Positions 22,029-50,445 of a stretch of 64,000 bases of DNA are shown piece by piece. Each line of letters opens with the position of its first letter. The stretch's first letter is position 1. This DNA is from Candidatus Parcubacteria bacterium (GTDB taxonomy: Bacteria > Patescibacteriota > Patescibacteriia > Patescibacteriales > UBA12075). The notes under the pieces are model-generated. The model did not search any database and was not told the origin of the DNA. It was given only the letters and a program-made list of their open reading frames with translations. The stretch spans positions 811,263 to 875,262 of the forward strand of contig CAWFCE010000002.1 in NCBI GenBank assembly GCA_963814275.1, read 5' to 3'. Both the position numbers and the translations under genes were made by a program.

Positions 22029-22049
22029 ATAATCATCAAGCCAGCATAT

Positions 22050-23577: not shown

Positions 23578-24130
23578 CGGCCTGGGTAACGGGCTGGTCG
23601 AATATTTCCGGCCCGGATCGAGAGGTATTAGCCGCCGTAACGGATACGATATTAACACAAACCGAGACAAGATCGTCGACCTGGCCCGTAGTTTTGATGT
23701 ATTCGTTAATCTGGCGAATTCCGGATTCAACCAGGCCTTAATGCTGTATGATATATTTAACGATTGGGAAAAAATCGATAAAAAAGGATATATAATCAAT
23801 GTCGGTTCTTACGGAACTTATAATCCGGGAGATGCGTGGCGACCCTGGCTGGCCGCCAAATTCGCCCTGGATATCGCCAATAAACAGTGCTGTAAAAAAA
23901 TCGAAGAAAAAAACTTGCCATTCCGCTCCACGAATATAAGATTCGGAATGCTTGATACCGATAAAAGCCGGGCTAAACCGAATTGGGAAGGGGTTGGCCA
24001 TCGGGCAGAAGATATCGCAAAATTGATCATATATCTGTGGAGCCAATTCAAAAGTAATGCACCGTATGATTTCAACGAAATTACGGTAAATAATATAAAA
24101 AATAATTTGGGAGAATTGCTACAAAAATGA
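23531..24130 (+). CDS. Short-chain dehydrogenase/reductase-like protein (atypical)
   Basis: The Rossmann motif is LITGGLDGLGNGL and NLANSG corresponds to NNAG. At the expected YxxxK position the sequence reads W-L-A-A-K, so catalytic competence is uncertain. Confidence 0.45.
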   Translation: MPKNIHPKFLITGGLDGLGNGLVEYFRPGSRGISRRNGYDINTNRDKIVDLARSFDVFVNLANSGFNQALMLYDIFNDWEKIDKKGYIINVGSYGTYNPGDAWRPWLAAKFALDIANKQCCKKIEEKNLPFRSTNIRFGMLDTDKSRAKPNWEGVGHRAEDIAKLIIYLWSQFKSNAPYDFNEITVNNIKNNLGELLQK

Positions 24131-26773: not shown

Positions 26774-26774
26774 C

Positions 26775-27989: not shown

Positions 27990-28018
27990 CAGTTTAATCT
28001 GCGTAAATCACTTATCCG

Positions 28019-30542: not shown

Positions 30543-30615
30543 ATACCATGCCCAATGATTATTCCATCGCATAATTGTTAGAAAAAGCGATTCCATTAAT
30601 TGCTGCCGCGTATTC

Positions 30616-30741
30616 ATGCGCATAATTCGTAAATTCAGAAAAGAATTCAAAAAAGGCGTTAATACGGCTTGTAACGAAATGTGTCCGGGAAAGATTAAGA
30701 AAATTATGTATGCCGAAGAACTTAATCTAAAAAAATTTTAA
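30616..30741 (+). CDS. Possible 41-aa small ORF in the only large gap of the rSAM array
   Basis: ATG at 30616 to TAA at 30739-30741 gives MRIIRKFRKEFKKGVNTACNEMCPGKIKKIMYAEELNLKKF (2 Cys). There is no clear SD, it is below the ORF-track cutoff, and it could be a chance ORF. Confidence 0.2.
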   Translation: MRIIRKFRKEFKKGVNTACNEMCPGKIKKIMYAEELNLKKF

Positions 30742-30750
30742 ACCAAAATA

Positions 30751-31905: not shown

Positions 31906-31918
31906 ATAAAGCGTATCA

Positions 31919-33229
31919 ATGATAAAGAAATTTACGAAAAAATCGAAAACATTCTGCATAATGCCGTTTATTCATCTTAATCATAAGCAGAATAACAAAA
32001 TCGGCACCTGTTGGCGGGCATTACCGGTCGGTGATTTGGAAAAGGAATCGCTGGAAAGGATTTGGAATAATGAAAATATCAAAAGAGTGCGTCACCAGCT
32101 TTTGAATAACGAGCGGCCGGCTGAATGCCAGGCTTGCTGGCTGCTTGAAGATAACGGATCTTCGAGCTATCGCGATCAGACAACCTTAACGGGCCAGGAC
32201 AAAGAGGAGAAAATGGCTGCGGACCTGATGCCGGAATTGGATATGGGGAACATGTCCCTTCCTTACAGAGTGCCATATGCGGAAATTCGTTTTTCCAATT
32301 TATGCAATTTGCGCTGCCGGATGTGCAGCCCGCGGTTTAGCGTGCAATGGGACAAGGAGTGGAAAAATAATCATAAATTGCGAACCTTTATCGAGAAAAA
32401 TGATCCGAGATCTTTGAACGGGTATATTTCCGTTTCCCGGGTAGACGCTAATGACAATACAATAAGGGCGAAGTTGTTGGATTTTCTGGAGAAATCCGCC
32501 CCGCATCTCCGCTATGTCATGTTTGGCGGTGGCGAACCGTTGCTGCAGCGCGATCATTACCGCGCCCTCGAGATACTGAAGCCTTATGCCAAAAATATTA
32601 CATTGGAATACACATCAAACCTTACGCGACTCGATCGGCATAAAAACCAGATATTCAAATATTGGCCGTTGTTCAAACATATCGATTTGAAAGTATCTCT
32701 GGATGCTGACCGAATAATTTATACCTATATCAGGCAGAATAGCCGGGTGGCCTGGCCGGAAAAGAATATTAAAACCATACAAGAAATTATCGATCCCGAA
32801 AAAATCAGGATATGCGCCACTTGTACGACCAGCGTTTATAATATCGAGAGGCTGCCTGAGGCGATGAATTGGTTCACGGAACTCGGCTGCTGGGCGCATG
32901 CGAGCATAGTATCTTATCCGAAATTCTTATCGGTGCATATTTTGCCGAAAGAGTTGAAAGCCAAGATAAATAAAAAAATAGATCTTTTCTTGTCTAACCT
33001 AGATTCCGACCTGAACTGGCTGGTCCATCCGCTATGGAAGGATAAGGGTAATCGGGAAAAGCAAAAAGAGTTGATCAAGCAGTATGTTATGAGTTGCCGA
33101 AATTATATGAACGGCAGCCACGACCAGAAAAGATGGAAAGTATTCCTAAACTTTGACGATATCCTCAGCGAAAAACAGAATTCTATCCTAGATATTTATC
33201 CGCGCTGGGAAAAATTTCTGTCTAAATAA
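31919..33229 (+). CDS. Radical SAM protein with an N-terminal 4-Cys module, paralogue 6 of 7
   Basis: FCIMPFIHLNHKQNNKIGTCW...AECQACW, then the triad FSNLCNLRCRMCSPRFSVQW, then MFGGGEPLL. Confidence 0.85.
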   Translation: MIKKFTKKSKTFCIMPFIHLNHKQNNKIGTCWRALPVGDLEKESLERIWNNENIKRVRHQLLNNERPAECQACWLLEDNGSSSYRDQTTLTGQDKEEKMAADLMPELDMGNMSLPYRVPYAEIRFSNLCNLRCRMCSPRFSVQWDKEWKNNHKLRTFIEKNDPRSLNGYISVSRVDANDNTIRAKLLDFLEKSAPHLRYVMFGGGEPLLQRDHYRALEILKPYAKNITLEYTSNLTRLDRHKNQIFKYWPLFKHIDLKVSLDADRIIYTYIRQNSRVAWPEKNIKTIQEIIDPEKIRICATCTTSVYNIERLPEAMNWFTELGCWAHASIVSYPKFLSVHILPKELKAKINKKIDLFLSNLDSDLNWLVHPLWKDKGNREKQKELIKQYVMSCRNYMNGSHDQKRWKVFLNFDDILSEKQNSILDIYPRWEKFLSK

Positions 33230-33252
33230 ATGAAAATACCTTTATTGAATAT

Positions 33253-34473
33253 ATGAAAAATTTTTGCGTTCAGCCTTTTATCGGATTGGCTATATTGCCA
33301 ACCGGTTCAATTGTACCTTGCGGTGACTCGATAGCGAAATATCAGCTGGGTAATATATATTTCGGTGATACTGTCACATCTGTTTGGCGGGGCAAGGAAT
33401 TGGATGATCTAAGGGAAAAAATCAAGTCCGGTTCGAATATATCGCTATGCCAAAGATGTTATGATGTCGAGAGGAGCGGTCTTGATAGTAAGCGAGTAAT
33501 TAAAAATCGCAAATGGCAAAAAAAATTGAGAATAAAGGGCCAAGATACATATAGAGAATGTTTATATGCAAATAACCGAATTAAATTTTTAGACATATCA
33601 TTCGGCAATAAGTGTAACCAGAAATGCGTGATGTGCTCCCCGGTATATTCATCACAATGGGTTAAACACAAAGACCTTTTTGATTTAGTCGGTATACGAT
33701 ATAACTCCAATGAGACAAATGAGCGGTCGATACCGTACGGAATTGTTGATGATATTTTGGAAAATTGTCGTAACCTTATAAAATTGAACATTAAGGGCGG
33801 CGAACCGCTTGTTGACAGAAAATGCATATATTTTTTAGACAGGCTATCACATATAAATCCCAATATTGATAATGTCAGTATTGTCACAAATGGTACCATA
33901 TTATCGCGGGAAATACTTAATATACTTAATAAATTCAAGAATATCTCCGTCGCCTTCAGCATAGACGGTACAAGTAAGATTAATGAATGGATCCGGGGAT
34001 CAAGTTCGATAATTATTTTGAATAACCTTAGGAAGCTCGCTATGCTGGATAGTTTAGTCGAAATTAGGATACACCACACTATTAGCGCGTATAATTTTTG
34101 GGATACGATTCCCTTTATCGAATTAACTCAAAAAATAAAAAAAGATATATTTGGCAAAAAGGGAAAAGCAATGAGTGTAAATTTGAAGCAGTATGTCGAA
34201 CAGCCCTATATTTCGGTAAAAAACATTCCCATTGATTTTAGAAAAAAAGCTATCGCGGAAATTGAAAAAAAATTACAAATCACAGATAAATCATTCTATG
34301 GCAAGGAGGAATTGCTTCGTTATGTATGTTTGCCCGAAAGCGCCGGAAAGGATCAAAGTGATTTTTTAAAATGGACAAACACATTTAATAAAATTAGAAA
34401 TCTTGATATTTATAAAATAGTACCAGAGCTAAATGAGGTTAAAAAATATATCGAATTAAATAAATATAGATGA
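33253..34473 (+). CDS. Radical SAM protein with an N-terminal 4-Cys module, paralogue 7 of 7
   Basis: FCVQPFIGLAILPTGSIVPC...SLCQRCY, then the triad FGNKCNQKCVMCSPVYSSQW, then NIKGGEPLV. Confidence 0.85.
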   Translation: MKNFCVQPFIGLAILPTGSIVPCGDSIAKYQLGNIYFGDTVTSVWRGKELDDLREKIKSGSNISLCQRCYDVERSGLDSKRVIKNRKWQKKLRIKGQDTYRECLYANNRIKFLDISFGNKCNQKCVMCSPVYSSQWVKHKDLFDLVGIRYNSNETNERSIPYGIVDDILENCRNLIKLNIKGGEPLVDRKCIYFLDRLSHINPNIDNVSIVTNGTILSREILNILNKFKNISVAFSIDGTSKINEWIRGSSSIIILNNLRKLAMLDSLVEIRIHHTISAYNFWDTIPFIELTQKIKKDIFGKKGKAMSVNLKQYVEQPYISVKNIPIDFRKKAIAEIEKKLQITDKSFYGKEELLRYVCLPESAGKDQSDFLKWTNTFNKIRNLDIYKIVPELNEVKKYIELNKYR

Positions 34474-35753
34474 AAACAACCGTCAAAAAAGGAAAATCGG
34501 TTAAGGTGTTATTTTATACCGCGAACGGTGTCGGCCTGGGGCATCTTCGCCGTACCAGCCTGATTGCAAAGGCAATTCAGGAAATCGAACCAAGGGCGCA
34601 GATCCGGTTTGTTACGATGAGTCAAAATCCCGGATTTCTCAGTGAACTCAAAATACCTTTTAATTTAATCCAACCAATTACGGATGAGATGTTAGATATT
34701 AATAATTATGATGCTTTTGTCCGAGCCAAAAAAAATAACGAATTGGCCCTCAGCCGTGTTTTACGCGATTTCCAACCGCAGGTAATAGTAGTCGATATCC
34801 ATTGTTTTTCCAATTACTCATTTCCCCAGGCTGCTTTTACCGGAAAAAATAAGGCAATCAGAAAAATACTGGTTTTCCGCCAAGGGGACAGGCAGAGCTT
34901 CGAAAATATTGTGAAGAACGAAGGAGGGGCGCTTACGGACAAAAGGAATGTTTTGTTGCCCGATATTCCTGATCGGTTTTTAACTCGGGAAGAATTCCAG
35001 GGCCTGGCCAAGCTAAAACTTTTTAAAATGATTTTATTGCCCCACAACCGGCTTGAAATTGTCGGAAAAATTTCCGCGCAAGTTATGAATATAATCGATT
35101 CTGATAAACGTTTTAAAGTAATCGGGCCAATCGTCGGAAAGCTGAACCGTGGAGTATTGGGATCATGCCGAAATAAATACCGGATCATGCCAGAAGAATT
35201 TTTAATGACGGTTATTCTGGGGGGAGGCGGAGAGCTCCTTAAGGGAAAATGCGAATCACCGATAGGCCTGGTTACTGCACTGTTAGACGAGTTGCCAGCG
35301 TTGAAAAAGGTTATCCCGAAATTACGGATGGTCTTGGTTACCGGGCCATTATTCAAATATAAGAATGCGGTCGTAAAGATGGCGATGAAATACGGTTGCT
35401 TTATCCAGGTCGTTGGTTATGAAGAAAATTTATTAGAGTTAATGCATTTATCACAGCTTGTTATTTCTCCGGTCGGGTATAATGCGGGCAATGAAATATT
35501 AAAATCCGGTACGCCGGTTTTGTTAGCGCCACTAGTGCGCGGCGACCAAAATGAACAGGAAGAACGGGCAAAACACCTCGAATCCCTCGGGATCGGATTG
35601 GTGCTATCCCGCCCGTGGAAAAAGAATATATCAGGATCGATAAGAAAGTGTTTGAAGTATTACGATGTGATGAAAAATAATTTTAGCAAACTGCCGCGTT
35701 ATAAGGCTGGCAACAGAAAAGCAGCAGCTCTAATCGTTAATGCAATTAAATAA
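34470..35753 (+). CDS. GT-B glycosyltransferase (MurG/GT28-like C-terminal domain)
   Basis: The N-terminus is VLFYTANGVGLGHLRRTSLIAKAI (G-x-G-H-x-x-R). The C-terminus is ISPVGYNAGNEILKSGTPVLLAPLVRGDQNEQEERAKHLESLGIG, which resembles the MurG-type donor-binding half. Confidence 0.6.
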   Translation: MKTTVKKGKSVKVLFYTANGVGLGHLRRTSLIAKAIQEIEPRAQIRFVTMSQNPGFLSELKIPFNLIQPITDEMLDINNYDAFVRAKKNNELALSRVLRDFQPQVIVVDIHCFSNYSFPQAAFTGKNKAIRKILVFRQGDRQSFENIVKNEGGALTDKRNVLLPDIPDRFLTREEFQGLAKLKLFKMILLPHNRLEIVGKISAQVMNIIDSDKRFKVIGPIVGKLNRGVLGSCRNKYRIMPEEFLMTVILGGGGELLKGKCESPIGLVTALLDELPALKKVIPKLRMVLVTGPLFKYKNAVVKMAMKYGCFIQVVGYEENLLELMHLSQLVISPVGYNAGNEILKSGTPVLLAPLVRGDQNEQEERAKHLESLGIGLVLSRPWKKNISGSIRKCLKYYDVMKNNFSKLPRYKAGNRKAAALIVNAIK

Positions 35754-37356
35754 CATGATATATTTTTTAAGTACACAAAATAAATGTAACAACAATTGTC
35801 CCTATTGCGATTTGCTGAATAAAAAGACCGAAGAAGAAAAAACATTATGCGATCTGGAGGAGGAAATACGTTTGGCAAAAGACAGGGGATACGATACCAT
35901 TAAATTATCCTGTAATACCGATATTCGAAAAGATTTCATTGACTTGCTAAAAATTTTGCATAATCATCGATTGCAAGTAATTCTGGAAACTAATGGCCGG
36001 ATATTCTTTTATCGTGTTCTGATCAGAAAAATTTCCAAATACATTAAAAGCTACGAAATCTTGTTCGATTATGCTAACAATAGCGGTAATCCATATCCGG
36101 CAAGACGACAAGGACAAAAAATTGCCGGGATAAAAAACATAGTAGACCACGTTGACACCGATACCTTGACAGCCAAGATAATCCTTTGGGGTGATAATGC
36201 GAATAATTTTAGGGTTTTATTGAGCCAGGTAAAAGGTTTGGGATTTAAAAAGCTTAAGGTCGTTCTCCCCCTCAAGGGCAATGCCAATGATCCGGTGTAT
36301 TCCCTGGTAAGATATGTTTCGATGGTAAAAGAAATAAAAGATTGCATACGGCAACTCGGTTTGGAATTGATAATCGACTGGACGGTGGAATACAATCCTT
36401 ATATAACCGCGGATAGGGATTTTTTCGATATCAACAAAGCGGAACTGCGGTTTGAAAAAACAATTTACAAAAAAAAGCCGGCAATTAGCGTGGTAATTCC
36501 CACATATAATAAATCCGGTTATCTGGGAATCGTATTAAAGAGTTTTTCAGCGCAAAAAATCGACAGGTCAAAATATGAAATAATCGTGGTCGATGACGGT
36601 AGCACGGACGGAACAGGGGAAATGATTAAAAAAATGAACTTTCGTTGCAACATTAAATATATTTATTGGCCCCGTAAAAAACTTCCCGCAAATGATTTTT
36701 TCCGTAATTGGGCGGATTTTCACAACCGAGCAGGTTTGGCGCGTAATATCGGGATAAAAGAATCAAGGGGGGAGATAATACTGTTTAACGATAATGACGT
36801 GGTAGTGGAAACCGACTGCCTTAGCAGGCATCTGCGACATCACAGCAAGAACCGTTCGCTTGTAGTGAAGGGTTTGCGCTGGTTCGTGAACGATGAATTC
36901 TTTAACGGTCGGGGACTGCATGATATGACCATGAGAAAAATAAAAAATAATGCCAGTCCTGAAAAAACGGATATCGGTAAGCGCTTGCATTGCCGTGTGT
37001 ATGACCTGAAAAGAGAAGGCTGGCAACGCGTGATAACTTATAATTTGAGCATTAGGAAAAAGATCGTTGAAAAGGCAGGTTTATTCCACATGGACTCGCC
37101 TTTTTGGGGCTATGAAGATATTGACCTTGGTTACCGTCTGCACAATCTAAATTTAAAATTTATCTGGGATGGTGATATTAATGTTTATCATTTGCCCCAT
37201 CCGGTACAAACGAAAAATGGTCTTAACTCTTTGTCAGTCCTGTGGTTGAACCTGAATATATTATTTCGAAAATATCTGGATGAAGAAATGTACGAATTAT
37301 ATCGCGATGTGATATTGTATAAGCTAGAAAATATAATCAATAGAAAATTATGTTGA
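35740..37356 (+). CDS. Fusion protein: N-terminal radical-SAM-like domain plus C-terminal GT2 (GT-A) glycosyltransferase
   Basis: The N-terminus has STQNKCNNNCPYCDL (Cx3Cx2C) but no clear GGEP strand. From about aa 247 it reads ISVVIPTYNKSGYL...EIIVVDDGSTDGT...ILFNDNDVV, the GT2 DxD-type core. An alternative start at 35755 lies just after the upstream stop. Confidence 0.75.
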   Translation: MQLNNMIYFLSTQNKCNNNCPYCDLLNKKTEEEKTLCDLEEEIRLAKDRGYDTIKLSCNTDIRKDFIDLLKILHNHRLQVILETNGRIFFYRVLIRKISKYIKSYEILFDYANNSGNPYPARRQGQKIAGIKNIVDHVDTDTLTAKIILWGDNANNFRVLLSQVKGLGFKKLKVVLPLKGNANDPVYSLVRYVSMVKEIKDCIRQLGLELIIDWTVEYNPYITADRDFFDINKAELRFEKTIYKKKPAISVVIPTYNKSGYLGIVLKSFSAQKIDRSKYEIIVVDDGSTDGTGEMIKKMNFRCNIKYIYWPRKKLPANDFFRNWADFHNRAGLARNIGIKESRGEIILFNDNDVVVETDCLSRHLRHHSKNRSLVVKGLRWFVNDEFFNGRGLHDMTMRKIKNNASPEKTDIGKRLHCRVYDLKREGWQRVITYNLSIRKKIVEKAGLFHMDSPFWGYEDIDLGYRLHNLNLKFIWDGDINVYHLPHPVQTKNGLNSLSVLWLNLNILFRKYLDEEMYELYRDVILYKLENIINRKLC

Positions 37357-39882: not shown

Positions 39883-41199
39883 ATGCCCAAGATTAAAAAC
39901 ATTTTAGCCCGCGAGATCCTTGATTCACGGGGTAATCCGACTGTGGAAACGAATATTATCCTGGATAACGGTGTTTCGGCCAAAGCCAGCGTGCCGAGCG
40001 GAGCCTCGACCGGCATTCACGAGGCCTGGGAATTGCGGGACGAAGATTATCAGCGCTATAGCGGCAAAGGCGTGCTCAAAGCGGTTGAAAACGTAAATAC
40101 AAAGATCTTCAAAGCGCTTAAAGGAAAAGACATCGATAAGCAGGAGCAGATCGATGAGATGATGATCGAGCTTGATGGCACCAAAAATAAGAAGAATCTG
40201 GGCGCGAACGCCATATTATCTGTATCCCTGGCCTCGGCTCGGACCGCGGCTATGGCAAATAATACGGAGCTTTACGCCTATATTGCAGAAACCTTCAAAT
40301 TTGACACCAAAAAATACCGTCTGCCCACGCCGTCATTCAATATTTTTAACGGCGGCAAACATGCCGACACCAATCTGGATTTCCAGGAATTCATGATTAT
40401 GCCGCTGCGCGGTACGCGGACGGGCACGGATAAGAAACGGATAAACACTGATAACGAACTACCGTTCGCCAGGATGGTGAGGATGGGAGCGGAGATCTTT
40501 CATGAGTTGGGCAAGGTATTGAAGGAAGGGGGGTATGATACCGACGTCGGCAATGAGGGCGGCTATGCCCCGGATATCCATTCGAGCATCCAGGCGCTGG
40601 AATTCATTTCCGCCGCGGCGACCCGGACCGGCTATAAACCGGGCGAGGACGTCGGCTTCGGTATCGATGTCGGTTCGAGCGGACTTTATAATCCGGAAAC
40701 CAAAAAATACGTTTTCAAGCTCGACAATGCCCAGTTTACGGCCGTTACTTTGACCCATTTGTATTATGAATGGTTCCGGAAATTTCCGATCATCTCGATC
40801 GAGGATGGCTTGGGGGAAGATGACTGGGCCGGCTGGCGCGAACTGAATCATGAATTGGGCCGGGAAATGCTTCTGATCGGCGACGATCTTTTCGTGACCA
40901 ACCTCGACCGCCTGCGGCGGGGGATCAAGGAGCGGGCGGCCAACGCCATTCTGATCAAGCCGAACCAGGTCGGGACCTTGACCGAAACGGTGGCAACGAT
41001 CAAACTGGCGCAGAAGCATGGCCTCAAAACCATGGCCAGCCACCGCAGCGGCGAGACCACCGACGACTTTATCGCCGATCTGGCGGTCGGTACCGGTTGT
41101 GATTACATCAAATCCGGCTCATTGTCGCGCGGCGAGAGATTGGCGAAGTATAATAGGCTAATGGAGATAGAGATGGCACTTGAACACGGGAACACTTGA
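39883..41199 (+). CDS. eno: Enolase (phosphopyruvate hydratase)
   Basis: ILDSRGNPTVE, SGASTGIHEA, IEDGLGEDDW, LIKPNQVGTLTE and SHRSGETTD are all canonical enolase motifs. A ~15-aa basic insertion follows EFMIMP. Confidence 0.97.
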   Translation: MPKIKNILAREILDSRGNPTVETNIILDNGVSAKASVPSGASTGIHEAWELRDEDYQRYSGKGVLKAVENVNTKIFKALKGKDIDKQEQIDEMMIELDGTKNKKNLGANAILSVSLASARTAAMANNTELYAYIAETFKFDTKKYRLPTPSFNIFNGGKHADTNLDFQEFMIMPLRGTRTGTDKKRINTDNELPFARMVRMGAEIFHELGKVLKEGGYDTDVGNEGGYAPDIHSSIQALEFISAAATRTGYKPGEDVGFGIDVGSSGLYNPETKKYVFKLDNAQFTAVTLTHLYYEWFRKFPIISIEDGLGEDDWAGWRELNHELGREMLLIGDDLFVTNLDRLRRGIKERAANAILIKPNQVGTLTETVATIKLAQKHGLKTMASHRSGETTDDFIADLAVGTGCDYIKSGSLSRGERLAKYNRLMEIEMALEHGNT

Positions 41200-41648
41200 G
41201 CACCGGATCAATATAATAAGAGTACCTAATTCGTAAATGCAATTTTTTATGGGTGAGTTTCGGGATAAATTAATCAAGAAAATAGATGAATACGTCCATT
41301 ATATCTATAGATTTACCAGAGATTTTCCCAAAGAAGAATTGTACGGGGCGGTATCACAAATCCGCCGCGCGTCTATGTCTATTATATTGAATTATATCGA
41401 AGGCTATGCCAGGAGAAGACCGGCTGTACAGTTGAATTTTTTTGAAACTTCATACGGATCATTTAAAGAATCTAAATATCTTTTACATTTTTCTTTGGTA
41501 GAAAAATATATTAATGAAATTGATTATATAAAAGGTCTAAATTTGGCCGAAGAAATTGGCGCCATGCTATGGACAGAGCTATCTTCTTTGGATAATAAGT
41601 TAAAGCCAGGGATCAAATAGTGTTTCAGTGTTCCGGTGCCCAAGTGTT
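41191..41648. repeat. 17-bp inverted repeat (16/17) bracketing the four-helix-bundle gene
   Basis: The left arm AACACTTGAGCACCGGA (41191-41207) overlaps the eno stop codon. The right arm TCCGGTGCCCAAGTGTT (41632-41648) lies just upstream of gpmI. The arms are rich in GAACAC/GTGTT(C) units. Confidence 0.8.
41237..41620 (+). CDS. Four-helix-bundle protein (23S rRNA intervening-sequence protein family, TIGR02436-like)
   Basis: YRFTRDFPKEELYGAVSQIRRASMSIILNYIEGYARR...SYGSFKESKYLLHFS matches the family pattern FPkeE-x-y-x-l-x-sQlrRAa-x-Si-x-x-NIaEG. An alternative start lies at 41249. Confidence 0.85.
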   Translation: MQFFMGEFRDKLIKKIDEYVHYIYRFTRDFPKEELYGAVSQIRRASMSIILNYIEGYARRRPAVQLNFFETSYGSFKESKYLLHFSLVEKYINEIDYIKGLNLAEEIGAMLWTELSSLDNKLKPGIK

Positions 41649-41662
41649 TAAATGAAAGTATT

Positions 41663-43252
41663 ATGCCGAAAAAAACAAGCAAACCACGTACCAATCTCCC
41701 CCTTGTCCTCATAATCCTCGACGGCTGGGGGATCGATAAGCCGAACAAAGGGAATGCCATAGCGCTGGCCAGGACGCCGACTATGGACGGCTTGATGCGG
41801 AAATATCCGAGTGCCAAACTGCGGGCCCACAGCCGGTTCGTCGGCTTGCCGGCCGGCCAGGTCGGCAATAGCGAAGCCGGGCACATGAACATCGGCGCCG
41901 GCCGCCTGGTCGAACAGGATTCCGTCCGTATCAGCAAAAGCATCCAGGACAAGACTTTCAATAAGAATTCGGCCTTTTTGGGCGCTATCCGCCACGTCAA
42001 AAAAATGAATTCGCGCATGCATCTCATCGGCATGCTGTCCAATGGGCAAAGTCCGCACAGCGACCCGGGGCATTTGCTGGCCCTGATCAAATTAATGAAG
42101 CTGCGCGGCATAGACGACGTTTTTTTGCATCTTTTCACGGATGGCCGCGACTCGCCGAAGTACGCGGCATTGCAGCTGGTTGACGATCTCGAGAGCCGCG
42201 TTTCGGGGGGGATTTATATCGCCTCGATCATGGGCCGGTTCTACGCGATGGACCGGAAAAAGAAATGGGAACGGACCGAAGCGGCATACAAAACGCTGGT
42301 GGCCGGGCAGGGATTGAAGGCAAAAAGCGCGCAAGCGGCCATTACCGAATCGTATAACCGCGGCGAAAGCGACGAATTCATCCAGCCAAACGTGATCGAG
42401 CAGATCAAAGGCTTGAATAGCCGGATCAAAGACGGCGATAGCGTGATATTCTTCAACTTACGATCGGACCGCGGCCGTCAATTGAGTAAGGCGTTTGTCC
42501 AGAAAGATTTCAACCGGATGAATCCGGGTTCGTTCAAACGGCCGAACAAACTGCACCATTTGTATTTTACCGCGATGACCGACTTCGGCCCTGATCTGGA
42601 CGACATTCTGACCGCTTATCCCAGTTTTGACCTGGGCGATACCCTGCCGATGCGGCTGAAAGACTATCGGCAGTTATATCTGGCGGAAACCGAAAAATAC
42701 GCCCATGTGACATATTTTTTCAATGGCGGTTTTTCCGGCACGGTCGCCGGCGAAGAACAAATGATGGTACCGTCGCCGGACGTGAAGTCTTACGACCAGA
42801 CACCGGCCATGAGCTCGGCGGGACTGGCCAAGGTGTTATTGGGCAATATCAAACCGAACGGCAAGACAAAACGCTGGCTTTATGATTTCATTACCGTGAA
42901 TTTCGCCGCTCCCGATATGGTTGGCCATACCGGCAATCTGTCCGCCGCGATCAAGACCTGCGAAGCGGTGGACAAATACGTCAGCGAGATCGTCAAAGCA
43001 TATTTGAAAGTCGGCGGAACCGTTTTGATCACCGCTGATCACGGTAATATCGAAAAAATGATCAATCTGGAAACCGATGAAATTTTTACCGAGCACACCA
43101 CCAATCAGGTACCGTTTATCGTTGTTAATAACAAATTACGCAATCGCTTGAAATTACGCTCCAATGGCATCTTGGGCGATATCGCGCCAACGATACTGAA
43201 GCTATTGGGTGAAAAACGCCCGTCCGCAATGCGGCGGAAAGCGCTTTTTTAG
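41663..43252 (+). CDS. gpmI: 2,3-bisphosphoglycerate-independent phosphoglycerate mutase
   Basis: LVLIILDGWG, the nucleophile motif GQVGNSEAGHMNIGAGR, NFAAPDMVGHTG, ITADHGN and TEHT. The length is full, about 530 aa. The ATG at 41663 is preferred over the track start at 41636. Confidence 0.93.
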   Translation: MPKKTSKPRTNLPLVLIILDGWGIDKPNKGNAIALARTPTMDGLMRKYPSAKLRAHSRFVGLPAGQVGNSEAGHMNIGAGRLVEQDSVRISKSIQDKTFNKNSAFLGAIRHVKKMNSRMHLIGMLSNGQSPHSDPGHLLALIKLMKLRGIDDVFLHLFTDGRDSPKYAALQLVDDLESRVSGGIYIASIMGRFYAMDRKKKWERTEAAYKTLVAGQGLKAKSAQAAITESYNRGESDEFIQPNVIEQIKGLNSRIKDGDSVIFFNLRSDRGRQLSKAFVQKDFNRMNPGSFKRPNKLHHLYFTAMTDFGPDLDDILTAYPSFDLGDTLPMRLKDYRQLYLAETEKYAHVTYFFNGGFSGTVAGEEQMMVPSPDVKSYDQTPAMSSAGLAKVLLGNIKPNGKTKRWLYDFITVNFAAPDMVGHTGNLSAAIKTCEAVDKYVSEIVKAYLKVGGTVLITADHGNIEKMINLETDEIFTEHTTNQVPFIVVNNKLRNRLKLRSNGILGDIAPTILKLLGEKRPSAMRRKALF

Positions 43253-43262
43253 CGCCCGAACT

Positions 43263-43366
43263 TTCGAACACGCAAACACAAGAATACGGTAACCACGGAA
43301 CAAGATAATCCTGAAAAACGGCTAGAATCAACCATGTTCGCGTGTTCCAGTGTTTGGGTGTTCTAA
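43263..43366. repeat. Second GAACAC-type inverted repeat enclosing only ~70 nt ('empty' counterpart of 41191-41648)
   Basis: TTCGAACACGCAAACAC (43263-43279) pairs with GTGTTTGGGTGTTCTAA (43350-43366) at 15/17 positions. The locus lies between the gpmI stop and the start of the gpmI-like gene. Confidence 0.7.
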
Positions 43367-43376
43367 TGCTAACATT

Positions 43377-44288
43377 ATGACAACTAAAAATAATAAGCAA
43401 TTGAACCAGCATGTATTATTGGTAATCCTTGACGGCTGGGGGGTGGCTCCGGCAAGCGATGGTAATGCGATTTCGCAGGCGTCCACGCCATTTTTTGATT
43501 CGTTGATAAAAGATTATCCGGCCACGGTATTGGCCGCCGCTGGTCCCTCCGTCGGTTTGTCTTCAAGAATTACCGGTAATTGCGAAGCCGGACATCAGAT
43601 GATCGGTACCGGCGCGAAAACAAACAGCCGGACCAAGAACTGCCTGGCTTCTGTGTTGGCTCAAAATGGCATAAGCCAATTGCGTATAGCCGATTCGGAG
43701 AAAATCGCCTTGGTGACTTATTTTTTTGATAGCCAGCGTTATCTAAGCGAAAAGTTGATACAGAACTTATTGGTCCCGTCGCTTACCATCGGTGATAATG
43801 CGAACCGGGCGGAAGCCCTGAATGAAGCAGCGGCAAAGATCACTGTCGAGGCAATTGAACGAAACGAACATGGATTGATTGTCGTTAATTTAGGCGGTCC
43901 GGACACAGTCGGCCATAGCGGTGATCTGGCCGCGGTCAAGCGGGTGATAGAAAGCACAGACAGGAAATTGGAACAGATCACTGCGGCCGCGTTAAATCGC
44001 GGTTATTTGGTGCTGGTAACTGCCGACCACGGCTTTGTTGAGCAAACGGTCGATTTGCCAACGGATATTAACAACCGGGAACACACGAAAAATCCGGTGC
44101 CATTGATCATTATCGGAAAACAATTCCTCGGACGATCAGCCGGTTGGATAGACAGCCATGGCAAGGATCTGAGCGCCGTAACGCCCCAGGGCTCGCTTAT
44201 GGATGTTGCCCCGACCATACTTAGCTTATTCAATATAACCCAGCCGGTCGAAATGACCGGACACAATCTGATAGCCGATAAATTATGA
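43377..44288 (+). CDS. iPGM-like metallo-phosphatase-domain protein lacking the phosphotransferase domain, with Cys at the nucleophile position
   Basis: VLLVILDGWG, GNCEAGHQMIGTG (TGC at 43581-43583, where gpmI has Ser), NLGGPDTVGHSG, VTADHG and REHT are retained. Only about 35 aa separate the nucleophile motif from the VTYFF strand, against about 235 aa in gpmI. Confidence 0.75.
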   Translation: MTTKNNKQLNQHVLLVILDGWGVAPASDGNAISQASTPFFDSLIKDYPATVLAAAGPSVGLSSRITGNCEAGHQMIGTGAKTNSRTKNCLASVLAQNGISQLRIADSEKIALVTYFFDSQRYLSEKLIQNLLVPSLTIGDNANRAEALNEAAAKITVEAIERNEHGLIVVNLGGPDTVGHSGDLAAVKRVIESTDRKLEQITAAALNRGYLVLVTADHGFVEQTVDLPTDINNREHTKNPVPLIIIGKQFLGRSAGWIDSHGKDLSAVTPQGSLMDVAPTILSLFNITQPVEMTGHNLIADKL

Positions 44289-47215
44289 GTACTGCGCGCC
44301 AGTTGAATATTGTGTTGGCTTATGCCATATTGTGCGTCTCCTTGATGGCCGGCGGATTTTTATTTTTTAATAAACCAATTTACAGCGCCGAACCGTCATC
44401 GGATGCGATAGCGATCAGGGTCATACCGAACCAGGAGCATTTGAGTGCCCGTTTATGGTACGGCCGGCAGGGATTTACCGGATCTCCGCAGTCATTGACG
44501 GTCGACGGCTATGAGGCGGTACGGGACGGAAGGACAGTGTATGTAAATGTCGGCAATGTCGACGGCAGTAATCTTTGGACCAATATTTATCTGATATCCT
44601 ATAACCAGCAAGCCGAAAAGATCACGAGCGACGTATTCGGCCAACTTTTGAAACATTGGAAATTCAATACTAATCTTAATCTAATGTCCGGTTTTTGCCG
44701 AAAAGACGCTACTATTAGCTGTCAAAAAGACGAATCCTGCCCGATCGGTGATTTTTGCGATAGCCCCAAAGCCAGGGTAATACGAGATACCCGGCGCTTG
44801 TCTGACTTGGCCGATCTACAGTCGCTATTGGATAGCTTCAATGCCCAAAACGGCCATTATCCGATCCTGTCGGCCGGCACCTACCTCGCCAACCGGACGA
44901 TATCCGTCTGGCCTAGTTGGCTGGACGCCTTTCGCAAGGAGTTGGGGACTAACCCGCCGGTGGATCCGGTTAACGCGTTCGAAAAATGTCCTGACGGGTA
45001 CGACGGAGTTACCTGCTGGAACGAAGCGGAAAAACGATTTCCCACAACTTTGCCGAATTTACCGGCCGCCAGCAATGGACTGGTATATATCTATCTATCC
45101 GATCCGACCGGACTGTCGGGAACGGTATGCGGCGTCTTCGAAAGCGGCTATACTATTTCACCCAGTCCGCCCGACTGCGTAGTCAAAATATGCCTTGATT
45201 TCGACCGTGACGGCTACGGCAGCCCCGGTTCGGCTGACTGCCCGAACGGCAGCGCTACCGATTGTAATGACACGGATACAAAGGTGCATGCCGGTAGCGC
45301 GGAAATATGCGATAACCACTTTGATGACGATTGTGACGGCCTGGTCGATTGTTGGGATGATAATTGTTTTGCGAATCCATCGTGTACCGCTTTTGTCTGC
45401 CATCCGGACGGCTGCGGCAATGGTTGCCCCAGCTTTTGTACGAAGAGCCAGGATCTTGATTGCGGGCCGCCGAATTGCGTTCCCGGCAACGGCTGCTGCG
45501 AATTCGGCTGTACCTTCGCCTCCGGCGATACCGATTGTCCGCCCACCTGTTCGCCGAACGGCTGCGGTGGCGGCTGCCCGCCCGGCTGCGGTCCGTCCGA
45601 TGATCCGGACTGTGCCGGCTGCGTAAGCGGCAACAGCTGCTGCACCGCCGGGTGCACCCGGACCTTGGGTGATCTGGACTGTCCGGAAGAGTGCGTAGAC
45701 GCCGATCATGACGGCTATAACGCTTACAACGCGGCGCTTTGCCCTTCGGGGAACGACTGCGATGACGGCAATAATAATATCTATCCCGGACACAGCGAGC
45801 TCTGCGACGGCCTGGATAACGACTGCGATGATACCAATCATAGCGACGGCATAACTCCTTCCTCAATTGACGACGGGCTGTCCGAGGAGCAATGCAGTTT
45901 CGTTTGCGCCGCCCATGGCTATGTATGGACCGGTTTGGGCGACCCGCGGAATTGCTGCGGCAATAACAGCGCTACTCATGAAGGAAATCCATATCAGAAT
46001 CACGAGAATAATCCACCAGGCTTCTGCAGCGATGGCAATGACAATGATTGCGACGGATTGATCGATATCCTTGATTCGGATTGCAGTACTTTGTGCGGTT
46101 CCAGCGGAGAGAACGATTGGTATGTGTTCTCGCAAGGGGATTGCGACCAATGCGACCATGCCGGCGACGACGACGGCGACCAGCCGGGCGATTGGGGCGT
46201 GTATAGCAATAAGATCGATGCCTGCGACAGCGATTGCGGGATAGTTTCCGGCAATACGGTTACATTGAGCAAATTCGAACCGGTGAGCGAGACCAGCTGC
46301 GATGGCCTCGACAACGATTGCGACGGCACGATTGACGAGGGTCTGGCTATTACATATTATCGCGACAGCGATAATGATAACTACGGCGATCCGCTTGACA
46401 GCATCGTTGCCTGCCCTTCATCCCCGCCCAGCGGTTATGTCGCCGATGGCTCCGACTGTGACGACGGCAATAGCAGCGTTCATCCTTGGGCCACGGAAAT
46501 ATGCGAAGACGGTATTGATAACGATTGTGTCGGCGGCGATTATTCGCCCTGTCCGCCGCCTTGCGACGACAGCGACGGTGATGGCTACGGCGTATGTCCG
46601 AAGTGCGGCACGGCAAACTCTTGTACTTATGACGGCGAGGATTGCGACGATACCAGAATTTATGTTCACCCCGGCCTGGAAGAAAGATGTGATGGATTCG
46701 ATAATGATTGCGACGATCCGGACCATAGCGACGGGGTCGATCCGGCGGCAATCGACGAAGGCTGTAATGATGACGGCGACGGCTATTGCGACGAGGATTT
46801 TGTTATGTATAATACCCCGTTAAGCCTGTGCCCGTTGACGGTAACCGCCAACGGCAATTACGGCAATGATTGCCTTGACAATCCTTCAAGCCCCTTTGCC
46901 GCCACCACGTACCCGGGCGCGGTCGAAACCTGTAACGGCAACGATGATGATTGCGATAAAGTCGTTGATGATGGCTTCAGCGCCGAAAATTGCCAGCCCG
47001 TATGCGAATTAGGCGGCTTCATCTGGACCGGCAACGGCGACCCGATCAATTGCTGCGGCAACAATGCCGGCGAGGGGGAATACCCGGAGGCAAGCTGTGA
47101 GGATGGGATCGATAATGACTGCGACGGTAGCACCGACTGCGAGGACAGTCCGGACTGCGACGAAGCCTGCAAGCCGGAATGCACATTTATTTTCGAGTTC
47201 CCGTGTGAATTCTAG
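44285..47215 (+). CDS. Giant secreted/anchored Cys-rich protein with 8 C-[DEN]-G-x-D-[ND]-D-C-D metal-binding-type repeats
   Basis: N-terminal hydrophobic anchor. A ~260-aa module is shared with the next gene. Then CDNHFDDDCDG, CDGLDNDCDD, CSDGNDNDCDG, CDGLDNDCDG, CEDGIDNDCVG, CDGFDNDCDD, CNGNDDDCD and CEDGIDNDCDG follow, several preceded by CDDxxxxxxPG-x-x-E. This is the MopE-like 'putative metal-binding motif'. Confidence 0.85.
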   Translation: MSTARQLNIVLAYAILCVSLMAGGFLFFNKPIYSAEPSSDAIAIRVIPNQEHLSARLWYGRQGFTGSPQSLTVDGYEAVRDGRTVYVNVGNVDGSNLWTNIYLISYNQQAEKITSDVFGQLLKHWKFNTNLNLMSGFCRKDATISCQKDESCPIGDFCDSPKARVIRDTRRLSDLADLQSLLDSFNAQNGHYPILSAGTYLANRTISVWPSWLDAFRKELGTNPPVDPVNAFEKCPDGYDGVTCWNEAEKRFPTTLPNLPAASNGLVYIYLSDPTGLSGTVCGVFESGYTISPSPPDCVVKICLDFDRDGYGSPGSADCPNGSATDCNDTDTKVHAGSAEICDNHFDDDCDGLVDCWDDNCFANPSCTAFVCHPDGCGNGCPSFCTKSQDLDCGPPNCVPGNGCCEFGCTFASGDTDCPPTCSPNGCGGGCPPGCGPSDDPDCAGCVSGNSCCTAGCTRTLGDLDCPEECVDADHDGYNAYNAALCPSGNDCDDGNNNIYPGHSELCDGLDNDCDDTNHSDGITPSSIDDGLSEEQCSFVCAAHGYVWTGLGDPRNCCGNNSATHEGNPYQNHENNPPGFCSDGNDNDCDGLIDILDSDCSTLCGSSGENDWYVFSQGDCDQCDHAGDDDGDQPGDWGVYSNKIDACDSDCGIVSGNTVTLSKFEPVSETSCDGLDNDCDGTIDEGLAITYYRDSDNDNYGDPLDSIVACPSSPPSGYVADGSDCDDGNSSVHPWATEICEDGIDNDCVGGDYSPCPPPCDDSDGDGYGVCPKCGTANSCTYDGEDCDDTRIYVHPGLEERCDGFDNDCDDPDHSDGVDPAAIDEGCNDDGDGYCDEDFVMYNTPLSLCPLTVTANGNYGNDCLDNPSSPFAATTYPGAVETCNGNDDDCDKVVDDGFSAENCQPVCELGGFIWTGNGDPINCCGNNAGEGEYPEASCEDGIDNDCDGSTDCEDSPDCDEACKPECTFIFEFPCEF

Positions 47216-47307: not shown

Positions 47308-50300
47308 ATGTCCCGGAGATGCTTAATCGGACAATATATTATGATAAGTAGCAGAAAAGTAATACAATTAACGAGTTTTATTTTTTCGATTATTTTTGTG
47401 TTTTGGTTGGCAATATTAATCTCTTTTATACCTTCCCGCGCCCAAACCGTCTCCTCCCCGGACGCCATCGCCATCCGTATCATTCCCAACGGCGAACACT
47501 TGAGCCCGGCCCGCTGGTACCGCGAGCAGGGATTTACCGGCTCGCCCCAGTCATTGACGGTCGACGGCTACGATGCCGTCCGCGACGGCCGCACCGTCTA
47601 TGTCAATGCCGCCAATATTGACGATAAGGGCACGGCCAGTCAGGCTGATGACGAGCTTTTTACCAATATCTATCTCATCTCATATAACCAGGATGCCGCC
47701 CGCAATACGGTCGATATTTTCGGCAATATCCTCAAACATTTCAAGCTCAATACCAACCGGACTGTGCCGGACAATTGCAACCTGGCCGTGGAAACGGTCT
47801 GCCTTAAGGATTCCGACTGCCCTCTGGGCGATTATTGCCTGAGCGAGAAGGCCCGGATCATCCGCGATGTCCGCCGCCTGCAGGATATCTCGGATATGGA
47901 CGGTTTACTGGCGGCCTATTACGCGGCCAACGGCCGTTATCCCGATCTGGCCGCCGGCTCTTACCTCACGCACCAATCACTCTCCGTCTGGCCCAGCTGG
48001 CAGAAGCTCCTGGCCCAGTATCTGGGCGGTCATCTGCCTGTCGACCCGATCAACCGGCTGGCCCCTTGTCCTGATAATTTCCATCCCGTTACCTGCTGGG
48101 ACGAGGCAGCCAAGCGGTTCGACGACCAGACGCCCGGTGATATCGATATTACCCTGCGCGCCGGCAGCCGCGTCTACAAGTACACCGGACAGCCCAATGG
48201 CGTAAGCTATGTGATCTGCAGCGTCATGGAGTCAGGCTATGTCAAGGACAGCGGCAGCGGCGCCTGTCCGGAATCGGCCGCTTTCAGCCTGAATAACGAC
48301 GCCGTCAACGAGGACCCGTATTTTGCCAATGTCGGCCTGCCGGTCGGATCTGCCGGCCTGCCCTACGAGGGATCGCTCATGGCCGCTGACCCCAATAACG
48401 ATGAGATCCATTGGGAATACAGCGCCCTGGGTTCCTGGAGCGGCTGGTCGGCCGCTCCGGAAATGCTTGCCACCTTCGACCCGCTCCAGAAGCGGATCAC
48501 TGCCGCGGTGGCCGGCCTGCCCGGCGATTATCAGTTTACTGTCAGCCTGGATGATGGCCGGGGCGGGACTGTCAGCCAGACTTTTACCATTACTGTCACC
48601 AATCTGCACGTGCCGGAATTCGCGCCCGTAGGGGATAAGACCGTGGTCATCGGCAGCGGCCTCAATTTCACGGTCAACGCCACCGAAGCAGACGGCCAAT
48701 ACCCCCTGGAATTCACGTTTTCCGGCGGTCCGGTCGGTTTCAATAATAACGGCGCAATGCTCAATGAACACGATTACGGCGTGGTGAGCGACGCGATCAT
48801 CGATATGACCGGCGTCTATCCCGTGAACATGTCTGTCAGCGACTCGTACGGGGGGAGCGAATCGGACGATTTCAATATCAACGTGGTCAACCACCCGCCG
48901 GTAATTTCGTCGCTGGCCAATCTGTCTATTACCGCCTGTGTGACTGACGTTTCTTATCCGGTTTCGGCCACCGACCCCGACGGCCATGCCGTTACTTACG
49001 CCGCCGCCGGCCTGCCTGCCGGATTGGCGATCGACGGCAATACCGGCCTGATCAGCGGCATTACAGCCGCCTCCGCCGGCTCTTACCCGGTAACAATTAC
49101 GGTCCGTGACCAGTATTTCACCCAGACGACCAATCCCTCCCACGCCCAGGCCAGCGCCTCTTTTACGATTACCGTGACGGACGAGACATTTACCGTCTGG
49201 ATCAATAACACCTACGATTTTTATGCCACCCCGCTCGGCATTAACCCCTTGGATCTGTACCTCCACCCTTTTCCTTATGCCACCCTGGCCGAGACCGACG
49301 CGGCCAATTCCGTTGACTGGGTGATCACCCGGACCTCGGCTCAGCCCCCAATACCTGATCTTTCCGTCCTGATCAATAATGCCGGGGCGATCAACGGTTC
49401 TGCCTTCGACAACAATATACCCGCCGCCGGTTATACTTTTACCATTACCGTAACCGCCACGACCCAGACCTGCCATGTCAGCCGGAGCGCCATGGCCACC
49501 TTGACGGTATATCCCAACCAGTGGTGCGGCGATAATATTATCCAAGCCGCCAAGGAATCGTGTGACGGCAGTAAGATGGGCGGCGGTACTTGCCAGAGCG
49601 AAGGGTTCGACAATGGCACCGTAACCTGCAATAACTGTTCCTACAGCACGGTGGCATGCTGCAATAGCGGCTGCGGCAGCCGAGTCTGCGGCCCTGACCC
49701 GAGTGGCTGTGTCGCCGACTGCGGCAGCTGTACAACGGCCAACACGGCCTGCAATATCGACGGGGAATGCATCTGCGCGATCGGCTATGCCACCTGCAGC
49801 ACGAATCCCTATGATGCCGACGGCTGCGAATGCTATACCGGATCCGGTCTGCACGACTGCGACCTTGGCACGCAAACCTGCTGCGACCGCGTCGACGGCG
49901 GCTGGTCGGTCTGGAGCGGCTGGTCCGACCCGGCCGGCTACAGCGATGGCGCCGGCGGCACCTGTTCCAAAACCTGCGGCGGCGGAATCCAGACCCGCAC
50001 CCAGATCTGCAATAATCCGTCCCCCTACTGCAGCGGCCTGGAATGCCTGGGCTGTGTCGGCGCCGCTTGCCCGGATGTCAATACGCAGGTCCAGGGCTGC
50101 AACACCCAGCCCTGCTGTGTTGACGATTGTAGTACGGGAGATATCAGCTGTTTTGCCGATACAGTACATACTTGTGGTGAAGCCGGGGACGGCGATCCTT
50201 GCCTGGATTGGGTGAATGCTTACCAATGCGGCGGTTCCGGCAGTAATAATTCAATATGCAATGGTACGGGAACGGGATGTCAATGCGAGATTGTAAGCCA

Positions 50301-50445
50301 CAGAAATTGTAACGGAAATTGGGCCGATGGCTGTGAAGCGACTTTAGGTACTTATTCTAATTGTTCTGGCTGTGGTGACGTTTGTGTCCCGCCCGAGAGA
50401 TGTGCAGCGGGTAGATGTTTTGATTGGGGCGGCGGTGATCCTTAG
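47308..50445 (+). CDS. Giant secreted/anchored protein: shared N-terminal module, Ig/cadherin-like (He_PIG-type) repeats, thrombospondin type-1 repeat, Cys-rich tail
   Basis: The N-terminal module is about 55-60% identical by eye to that of 44285 (AIAIR[VI]IPN.EHLS...QGFTGSPQSLTVDGY.AVRDGRTVYVN...TNIYLISYNQ). SATDPDGHAVTYAAAGLPAGLAIDGNTGLISG is a putative-Ig motif. WSVWSGWS...CSKTCGGGIQTRTQIC is a TSP1 motif. An alternative start lies at 47341. Confidence 0.85.
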   Translation: MSRRCLIGQYIMISSRKVIQLTSFIFSIIFVFWLAILISFIPSRAQTVSSPDAIAIRIIPNGEHLSPARWYREQGFTGSPQSLTVDGYDAVRDGRTVYVNAANIDDKGTASQADDELFTNIYLISYNQDAARNTVDIFGNILKHFKLNTNRTVPDNCNLAVETVCLKDSDCPLGDYCLSEKARIIRDVRRLQDISDMDGLLAAYYAANGRYPDLAAGSYLTHQSLSVWPSWQKLLAQYLGGHLPVDPINRLAPCPDNFHPVTCWDEAAKRFDDQTPGDIDITLRAGSRVYKYTGQPNGVSYVICSVMESGYVKDSGSGACPESAAFSLNNDAVNEDPYFANVGLPVGSAGLPYEGSLMAADPNNDEIHWEYSALGSWSGWSAAPEMLATFDPLQKRITAAVAGLPGDYQFTVSLDDGRGGTVSQTFTITVTNLHVPEFAPVGDKTVVIGSGLNFTVNATEADGQYPLEFTFSGGPVGFNNNGAMLNEHDYGVVSDAIIDMTGVYPVNMSVSDSYGGSESDDFNINVVNHPPVISSLANLSITACVTDVSYPVSATDPDGHAVTYAAAGLPAGLAIDGNTGLISGITAASAGSYPVTITVRDQYFTQTTNPSHAQASASFTITVTDETFTVWINNTYDFYATPLGINPLDLYLHPFPYATLAETDAANSVDWVITRTSAQPPIPDLSVLINNAGAINGSAFDNNIPAAGYTFTITVTATTQTCHVSRSAMATLTVYPNQWCGDNIIQAAKESCDGSKMGGGTCQSEGFDNGTVTCNNCSYSTVACCNSGCGSRVCGPDPSGCVADCGSCTTANTACNIDGECICAIGYATCSTNPYDADGCECYTGSGLHDCDLGTQTCCDRVDGGWSVWSGWSDPAGYSDGAGGTCSKTCGGGIQTRTQICNNPSPYCSGLECLGCVGAACPDVNTQVQGCNTQPCCVDDCSTGDISCFADTVHTCGEAGDGDPCLDWVNAYQCGGSGSNNSICNGTGTGCQCEIVSHRNCNGNWADGCEATLGTYSNCSGCGDVCVPPERCAAGRCFDWGGGDP

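Follow-up and report, generated by a model that had tools for sequence, protein, structure and literature searches.

A phosphatase domain standing alone beside gpmI

The window analyzed here, a 64,000-nucleotide stretch of a Candidatus Parcubacteria genome (contig CAWFCE010000002.1), carries a canonical gpmI gene for cofactor-independent phosphoglycerate mutase (iPGM) and, directly downstream of it, a short open reading frame (ORF) that is the subject of this study. The canonical gene (41636–43252, + strand), here called copy A, encodes a 538-residue protein in which the 17 catalytic and substrate-binding residues are all present, together with the nucleophile motif GNSEAGH; it matches TIGR01307 (567 bits, cutoff 331), PF01676 and PF06415. 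The short ORF (43377–44288, + strand) runs from the ATG at 43377 to the TGA at 44286–44288 and encodes a 303-residue protein, which we name S together with its short homologues. Starting instead from a GTG in frame at 43350, the protein would have 312 residues; the ATG is preferred on the basis of the N-termini of the homologues.

S matches PF01676 with 172 bits over residues 12–287 and, in the same Pfam scan, shows no match to PF06415 (iPGM_N), the transferase domain. On TIGR01307 it reaches 205.5 bits (cutoff 330.65) and on NF003897 150.9 bits (cutoff 862), and neither Pfam nor NCBIfam holds a model specific for it. By BLASTP, S aligns with residues 10–89 of the GpmI protein of the window at 45% identity and with residues 346–532 at 34%; about 250 residues, including the whole PF06415 region, are gone, and a short linker (about residues 80–88; 43614–43640, + strand) stands at the excision site in place of gpmI residues 92 to 343, approximately. 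Against the Geobacillus stearothermophilus iPGM structure 1EJJ, residues 5–73 and 312–510 are covered, and GNCEAGH of S pairs with GNSEVGH without a gap. S is the phosphatase (alkaline-phosphatase-fold) domain of an iPGM alone; Pfam, BLASTP and the 1EJJ alignment agree here with a preliminary description of the locus, which had called it a domain-deleted iPGM paralogue without the transferase domain. That description had also held that S cannot act as a mutase, and the alignment bears this out: the columns of His123, Arg153, Asp154, Arg185, Arg191, Arg261 and Arg264 are gaps in S, seven of seven, and S is predicted to be incapable of the mutase reaction because all of the glycerate-binding residues are missing.

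The metal-ligand motifs of the phosphatase domain are retained, as had been noted earlier: ILDGWG (Asp19), GNCEAGH (Cys69), PDTVGHSG (Asp176 and His180), ADHG (Asp217 and His218) and EHT (His236). In the numbering of the G. stearothermophilus enzyme, Asp19 (43431–43433) corresponds, by motif and by the 1EJJ alignment, to Asp12 of the nucleophile-side metal site, M2, and Asp217-His218 (44025–44030) to the M2 ligands Asp444-His445. The segment from Asp176 to His180 (PDTVGH; 43902–43916) aligns with Asp403 and His407 of the second metal site, M1, whose third ligand, His462, is matched by His236 (44082–44084). Lys109 (43701–43703) aligns with Lys336, the phosphate-contacting lysine of the phosphatase domain. 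Cys69, encoded by TGC at 43581–43583, takes the place of the nucleophile Ser62 in ungapped alignments with the solved iPGMs 1EJJ and 1O99, and its assignment to the nucleophile position in the preliminary description is upheld. All of these codons lie on the + strand. In sum, the seven metal ligands (7/7) and the equivalent of Lys336 are present in the S of the window, with the key-residue string D C H ... K L D H D H H.

Structure prediction, proposed earlier as a check, gave a confident model (AlphaFold2 with 22 family sequences; predicted local distance difference score 89.7, predicted TM-score 0.92), in which Cys69 starts a helix spanning residues 69–78 and the N-terminus forms β-strand 1 of the fold; S has no signal peptide. 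The top PDB matches of the model in Foldseek are the iPGMs 1EJJ, 2IFY and 1O99 (E ~1e-21, query-normalised TM 0.82–0.85), followed at E ~1e-9 to 1e-11 by ApgM, sulfatases, phosphopentomutase, alkaline phosphatase and the LtaS family. The core that defines the alkaline-phosphatase superfamily is present, namely the alpha/beta fold, a nucleophile at a helix N-terminus and an adjacent Asp/Asp/His metal site. Of four features that define an iPGM, three are absent from S (a Ser nucleophile, a transferase domain and a score above the family cutoff) and one, the phosphatase-domain ligands with Lys336, is present; the annotation "mutase" is therefore unsuitable.

S and the second gpmI copy

Related loci (80 from metagenomes and 80 from GTDB genomes; handles beginning with L below) were scanned with an ORF and phmmer pipeline, and those closest to the window are labelled Candidatus Parcubacteria, Falkowbacteria or Patescibacteria group. 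At loci of the Patescibacteria type, another full-length gpmI (copy B, about 525–535 residues) usually comes right after the first (copy A), a tandem present in about 75 of the loci fetched. None of the 17 catalytic and substrate-binding residues is lost in any A copy (n = 44) or B copy (n = 40), and mean identity over the same columns is 56.7% among B copies versus 50.7% among A copies. Copy B carries a characteristic C-terminal loop, F-x-G-R-x-x-G-W-x-D-x-x-G-x-D-L-S, whose columns are gapped in 93–98% of A copies. A survey of 702 bacterial genomes found iPGM paralogues in just four of them and called them rare (2010; PMC2964296), which makes the A/B pair unusual in its own right.

S is a domain-deleted derivative of copy B, and not a duplicate of the adjacent gpmI, because it shares the loop of copy B, resembles B more than A (mean identity 39% vs 36%) and occupies the genomic position of the second gpmI copy of related genomes. 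The B-type loop is conserved in B and S alike, and in the S of the window it reads FLGRSAGWIDSHGKDLSAVTPQ (44124–44189, + strand), which the alignment columns mark as a signature insertion of copy B missing from copy A. S also nests with B in neighbor-joining trees of the phosphatase domain. In iPGMs the transferase domain interrupts the phosphatase domain, and in the lineage of the window it was cleanly excised from copy B. The paralogy with gpmI claimed in the preliminary description stands as regards the domain deletion, and falls as regards descent from the adjacent gene, since the parent is the second copy. A split enzyme with a separately encoded transferase domain was considered; no stand-alone iPGM_N ORF lies within the 64-kb window.

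Among 1.84 billion representative proteins, a profile search found, amid full-length iPGMs, about 20 clusters of proteins of 275–320 residues with a single end-to-end match. The short-family profile scores full-length copy B equally high, and family members were sorted by length and by tables of key residues. At least 25 non-identical short proteins belong to the family, the excision being common to all, and wherever a locus includes upstream sequence, a full-length gpmI directly precedes the short gene (L002/3, L004, L005, L006, L014, L089, L091, L094, L095 and L099). A pattern search with TGNCEAGH, drawn from a two-sequence alignment, found no relative among GTDB representatives. The S of the window is the sole member of its 90% cluster, and nothing above about 40% identity exists in the protein collection searched. 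The preliminary description had considered that orthologues with Ser and a full transferase domain would mark S as a decaying duplicate; the positional orthologues instead keep the deletion, with Cys in L089, L091, L094, L095 and L005 and Ser in L003.

Neither the change from Ser to Cys nor the loss of the mutase residues requires the domain deletion, because both are also seen in full-length proteins (U_L040, P0127, P0128, P0132, P0140, P0144, P0145, P0158 and P0260). In a tree of gpmI copy A, the window groups with L089, L094 and L095, all of which have a Cys-type S, in a clade with 94% bootstrap; L006 and L014, in which S lacks the nucleophile, are placed clearly elsewhere, and genomes with a canonical copy B are interleaved. 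The excision occurred at least twice, since L006 and L014 stand apart with canonical-B genomes in between. Support is just 13–38% on whether L003 and L091 share the deletion event of the window.

Several variants of the pair were noted beside these. At L086 (5494–9614) the order is pgk-eno-X-murJ, where X is P0128, a 537-residue full-length Cys-type iPGM-like protein in which seven of seven transferase residues and M1 are degenerate; it has no adjacent canonical gpmI, and the enolase of this locus matches Enolase_C only. Ten full-length proteins of 507–546 residues (from L025, L036, L063, L069, L072, L073, L078, L080 and L084, and P0213) combine a Thr nucleophile and Phe for His339 with canonical transferase residues, and may form a distinct subfamily. 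L101 (6243–7205) encodes a 320-residue copy B without the N-terminal part (no Asp12, no Ser62), and in L020 (2502–4100), L075 and L076 copy B is split into two ORFs; all four may be pseudogenes or assembly errors. We note that metagenome-assembled genome records (third party annotation, TPA) titled "uncultured Gammaproteobacteria bacterium" (L097, L100, L101, L103, L105, L109 and others) carry the A/B tandem with a gpmI 65–70% identical to this Patescibacteria-type gene, and that their organism labels look wrong.

The cysteine position and what S may do

The 17 key residues were tabulated in 461 non-identical iPGM-family sequences. Where the transferase residues are canonical (n = 396), the nucleophile is Ser in 385, Thr in 10, another residue in one, and Cys in none. 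Where they are degenerate in a full-length protein (n = 40), it is Cys in 9, Ser in 25, Thr in 2 and another residue in 4, and where the transferase domain is deleted (n = 25), Cys in 11, Ser in 8 and another residue in 6. The table shows the putative Cys nucleophile to be confined to copies that are predicted to be mutase-dead (0/396 vs 20/65; Fisher p = 6e-19, a descriptive value that ignores kinship). It likewise shows that the predicted M2 ligands (Asp12, Asp444 and His445) are always intact in Cys-type proteins (20/20, versus 21/45 of the other degenerate or deleted copies; p = 1e-5, again with kinship ignored). At the Lys336 position, 18 of these 20 have Lys and the other two Arg, and His66 is His in 18. 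The M1 ligands (Asp403, His407 and His462) are optional, being intact in 9 of the 20 and lost in 11, with Arg or Lys at an M1 position in 8 of the 11. Cys is combined with complete M1 and M2 in the S of the window, P0125, P0161 and P0199, and also in P0138, which has Tyr for His66. In the members L006, L014, P0151, P0166, P0234, P0247 and L099, the nucleophile position has no Ser or Cys, and Asp444 is lost too. The group of Cys-type derivatives of copy B that we propose has five features (a position directly downstream of a canonical gpmI, the B loop, a degenerate or deleted transferase domain, a Cys nucleophile and an intact M2), all of which are found in the S of the window.

The gene for S is, from substitution patterns, under purifying selection and evolves about three times faster than gpmI: the ratio of nonsynonymous to synonymous substitutions (dN/dS) is 0.14–0.17 for four S pairs with unsaturated dS and 0.15–0.22 for one further pair, compared with 0.065 for copy A of those genomes. 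For the S of L006 versus that of L014 the ratio is about 0.24, with dS near saturation. In the same genome pairs, S–S identity is 28–50% and gpmI-A identity 58–75%; between the window and its nearest relatives the values are 38–39% and 73–74%. For the S of the window dS is saturated against every relative, and selection on it is read through its relatives together with the ORF, fold and ligands; its maintenance is indicated by the intact ORF, the confident fold and the full retention of metal ligands.

In active enzymes of the alkaline-phosphatase superfamily (sulfatases, LtaS/EptA, NPP) the minimal core consists of the nucleophile and the M2 metal, with M1 optional. We tentatively favour, at somewhat less than an even chance, a reading of S as a hydrolase or transferase that depends on a metal, has acquired a new function and uses a metal-bound Cys as its nucleophile, because the strict retention of Cys and M2 with an optional M1 is this same minimal active-site architecture. 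The Mn-binding sulfatase EfAS illustrates it, losing its activity when Asp20, Cys61, Asp311 or His312 is mutated (PMC12421950). S would be a cytoplasmic enzyme acting on phosphoryl (or related) groups, in which the Cys69 thiolate, bound to the M2 metal, would attack a substrate at the now solvent-open active site, and a labile S-phospho-cysteine intermediate would form on Cys69; M1 (Asp176, His180 and His236) would stabilise the leaving group in the S of the window. A bolder claim, which we regard as possible and no better than doubtful, is that these Cys-type proteins are the first natural enzymes of the superfamily with a genetically encoded, unmodified, metal-bound Cys thiolate as nucleophile, a state apparently arisen more than once upon loss of mutase function by the second iPGM copy of Patescibacteria, the cap then degenerating or being excised.

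A number of observations weigh against a catalytic role. To our knowledge, no natural enzyme of the alkaline-phosphatase superfamily is known to have an unmodified Cys nucleophile. In the S of the window, His339 is replaced by Leu and the Asn of ADHGN by Phe, and the PSP..YD..PxMS segment is lost. Of the 51 phosphatase-domain positions that A and B each conserve at 95% or more, the S of the window retains 40, a point in favour of the catalytic reading; only 22 of these 51 are at least 80% conserved across the S family. Some members that lack both the nucleophile and Asp444 nevertheless persist (L006, L014, P0151 and L099), and since the active site is not conserved and such members survive, the function common to the family may be other than catalysis. 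The Fisher tests disregard phylogenetic non-independence. The neighbor-joining trees of the phosphatase domain are poorly resolved, with the fast-evolving forms clumped, possibly by long-branch attraction, and the deleted and full-length Cys forms interleaved; their internal order is not relied on.

These points bear on the leading alternative, which we consider possible although unlikely, that S is a non-catalytic pseudoenzyme whose core is kept for binding, be it of a metal, of a phospho-ligand or of a protein partner, for instance GpmI or some other enzyme of glycolysis. The B loop may mediate the binding, and Cys69 may merely tune metal affinity or redox sensitivity. The turnover of the nucleophile in the short family (Cys 11, Ser 8, other 6), the partial retention of His407 (14/26) and His462 (11/26), the intact ORFs of members without nucleophile or Asp444 (with the L006–L014 ratio given above) and a divergence of S far faster than that of gpmI all accord with it, as does the B-type loop (G252, G256, D264, L265, S266 and P270), which is among the best-conserved parts of S. 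Against it, the near-perfect retention in Cys-type proteins of M2 (20/20), Lys336 (20/20, counting Arg) and His66 (18/20) would be unexpected if the chemistry of the site were irrelevant, and the S of the window keeps seven of seven metal ligands.

Neighbouring genes and known systems

The block to which S belongs starts with enolase (eno, 39883–41199, + strand; same order in L089 and L091) and continues through gpmI and S to a gene for a 976-residue MopE-repeat protein with an N-terminal membrane anchor (44285–47215, + strand). The ATG of this giant gene overlaps the stop of S (ATGA, 44285–44288), an overlap that the preliminary description had reported and that is real. The order eno–gpmI–S–MopE-repeat giant, in places continued by a He_PIG giant and BacA, recurs in L089/90, L091/92, L094, L002/3, L005, L099 and L101, and the same giant gene also comes after a full-length canonical copy B at two loci, L103 and L118. 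From the overlap, it had been suggested that S and the giant gene are expressed together. Co-transcription is plausible in this genome; as a general feature it fares less well, because an overlap recurs in only one of five further loci (L089, 8 nt; gaps of 49–118 nt in the four others), L006 has opposite-strand genes after S and no giant neighbour, and the adjacency must predate the deletion since the giant gene follows canonical B in L103 and L118. This argues that the adjacency is inherited synteny and, at best, weak evidence for a functional tie.

It is improbable that S is an accessory factor of the giant surface protein, linked to it by translational coupling, that would for example modify it or load it with metal before export. 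The overlaps, and an S–MopE order kept in the window and the seven loci listed above despite about 38% S–S identity, are what such a factor would leave behind; the age of the adjacency, the gaps at other loci, the arrangement in L006 and the lack of a signal peptide on S speak against it.

The two giant genes (44285–47215 and 47308–50445) are paralogues that share an N-terminal domain of about 300 residues behind the membrane anchor and then diverge, into MopE-type Cys/Asp-rich repeats (976 residues) in one and He_PIG/Ig domains (1045 residues) in the other; the pair followed by BacA is also found in L091. Between eno and gpmI, 41237–41620 encodes a 127-residue four-helix-bundle protein of the 23S-rRNA-intervening-sequence/bAvd-like type (PF05635, 83 bits), which was not seen in L089 or L091. 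The gap between gpmI and S is 124 nt here (43253–43376) and 170–266 nt in relatives (L089 9819–10000, L094 8591–8760, L091 9735–10000; AT-rich), compared with a typical A–B gap of 2–30 nt. The gaps of the Cys-type clade contain no conserved element and no Rfam match, and no terminator-like site is predicted on the + strand between gpmI and S.

Upstream of S by 6–22 kb, the window holds at least 12 consecutive radical-SAM genes (20943–37356). Three of them (25493–26773, 31919–33229 and 33253–34473) pass NF033640, a model of radical-SAM proteins with an N-terminal twitch domain, at 244–286 bits; the last gene of the run (35740–37356) encodes a fusion of a radical-SAM domain with a GT2 glycosyltransferase, and other glycosyltransferases lie among the run. 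The preliminary description had raised, as speculation, a link between such genes and Cys69. In such a scheme, oxidation of the cysteine to formylglycine by a radical-SAM/SPASM maturase would yield a catalyst like a sulfatase or phosphonate monoester hydrolase. We judge this very improbable. The EfAS sulfatase binds Mn through an equivalent Asp/Cys/Asp/His site, and its D20, C61, D311 and H312 mutants are inactive (PMC12421950); the M2 composition of S matches this site, relatives have M1 replaced by Arg or Lys as sulfatases do, and S itself has a weak match to the Pfam Sulfatase family. That match, however, reaches 20.9 bits, below the PF00884 cutoff of 25, and covers residues 185–287 only. 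The motif of S is C-E-A-G-H and not C/S-x-P/A-x-R, the Cys-type proteins having A, I, Q, T, K, Y or L at +2 and H or Y at +4. Nor do the nearby genes resemble anaerobic sulfatase-maturating enzymes (anSME): just two match TIGR03942, at 22–24 bits against a cutoff of 349, and neither L089 nor L091 has a radical-SAM gene within 10 kb of S.

A decaying remnant of copy B heading for loss, which the fast evolution, the unique sequence and the truncated or split B copies elsewhere (L101, L020, L075 and L076) might bring to mind, is excluded for the S family and is the least credible account of the S of the window, given an intact 303-codon ORF, a high-confidence fold with all metal ligands kept, positional homologues under purifying selection (omega about 0.15) and deletion boundaries that coincide exactly with domain boundaries.

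Literature searches returned nothing on truncated or Cys-type iPGMs, nor on tandem iPGMs in Patescibacteria, and S belongs to an undescribed group of mutase-dead iPGM copies in this phylum. If the cysteine is catalytic, it would be a new type of nucleophile in a superfamily that serves as a model of catalytic promiscuity and enzyme evolution, and the group would offer a natural series from canonical enzymes through full-length mutase-dead Cys forms to domain-deleted ones, with M1 kept or lost. The tiny genomes of Patescibacteria keep a near-universal tandem iPGM pair that had gone unrecognised, which raises the question of the role of the second copy. S proteins of about 300 residues are sometimes labelled "phosphoglycerate mutase" (P0161 in IMG), a wrong label that can lead metabolic reconstructions of candidate phyla radiation (CPR) genomes to overcall glycolysis. 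S should interest specialists in enzyme evolution and in CPR metabolism.

Among known systems, type I sulfatases and phosphonate monoester hydrolases (EfAS; PMC12421950) have, like S, the core of the alkaline-phosphatase superfamily and an encoded Cys at the N-terminus of the nucleophile helix beside an Asp/Asp/His site. Basic residues stand in for their second metal site, as they do in Cys-type relatives, whereas the S of the window has a complete M1; they differ from S in the C/S-x-P/A-x-R motif, which S lacks, and neither a formylglycine-generating enzyme nor an anSME is encoded near S.

The iPGM/GpmI enzymes (TIGR01307; EC 5.4.2.12; 1EJJ, 1O98 and 2IFY) share with S the phosphatase fold (TM 0.82–0.85) and Lys336, S sits where related genomes have their second gpmI copy, and the binuclear ligands Asp12, Asp403, His407, Asp444, His445 and His462 are all present in S. 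They have the PF06415 domain, a Ser nucleophile and His339, in place of which S has no such domain, Cys and Leu, respectively. ApgM and DeoB belong to PF01676 like S, give weak NCBIfam matches over S residues 144–256, and are represented among the Foldseek matches by 2ZKT, 3M7V and 4N7T (E about 1e-9 to 1e-11); unlike the capless S, they have an inserted cap domain and a Ser/Thr nucleophile. Sequence and synteny indicate that S descends from a bacterial iPGM and not from ApgM or DeoB. A parallel to a Cys nucleophile at a binuclear site is the engineered S102C variant of E. coli alkaline phosphatase, which reportedly still supports phosphoryl transfer. That variant is a laboratory mutant, whereas the Cys of S occurs in nature, is found repeatedly and has persisted through deep divergence.

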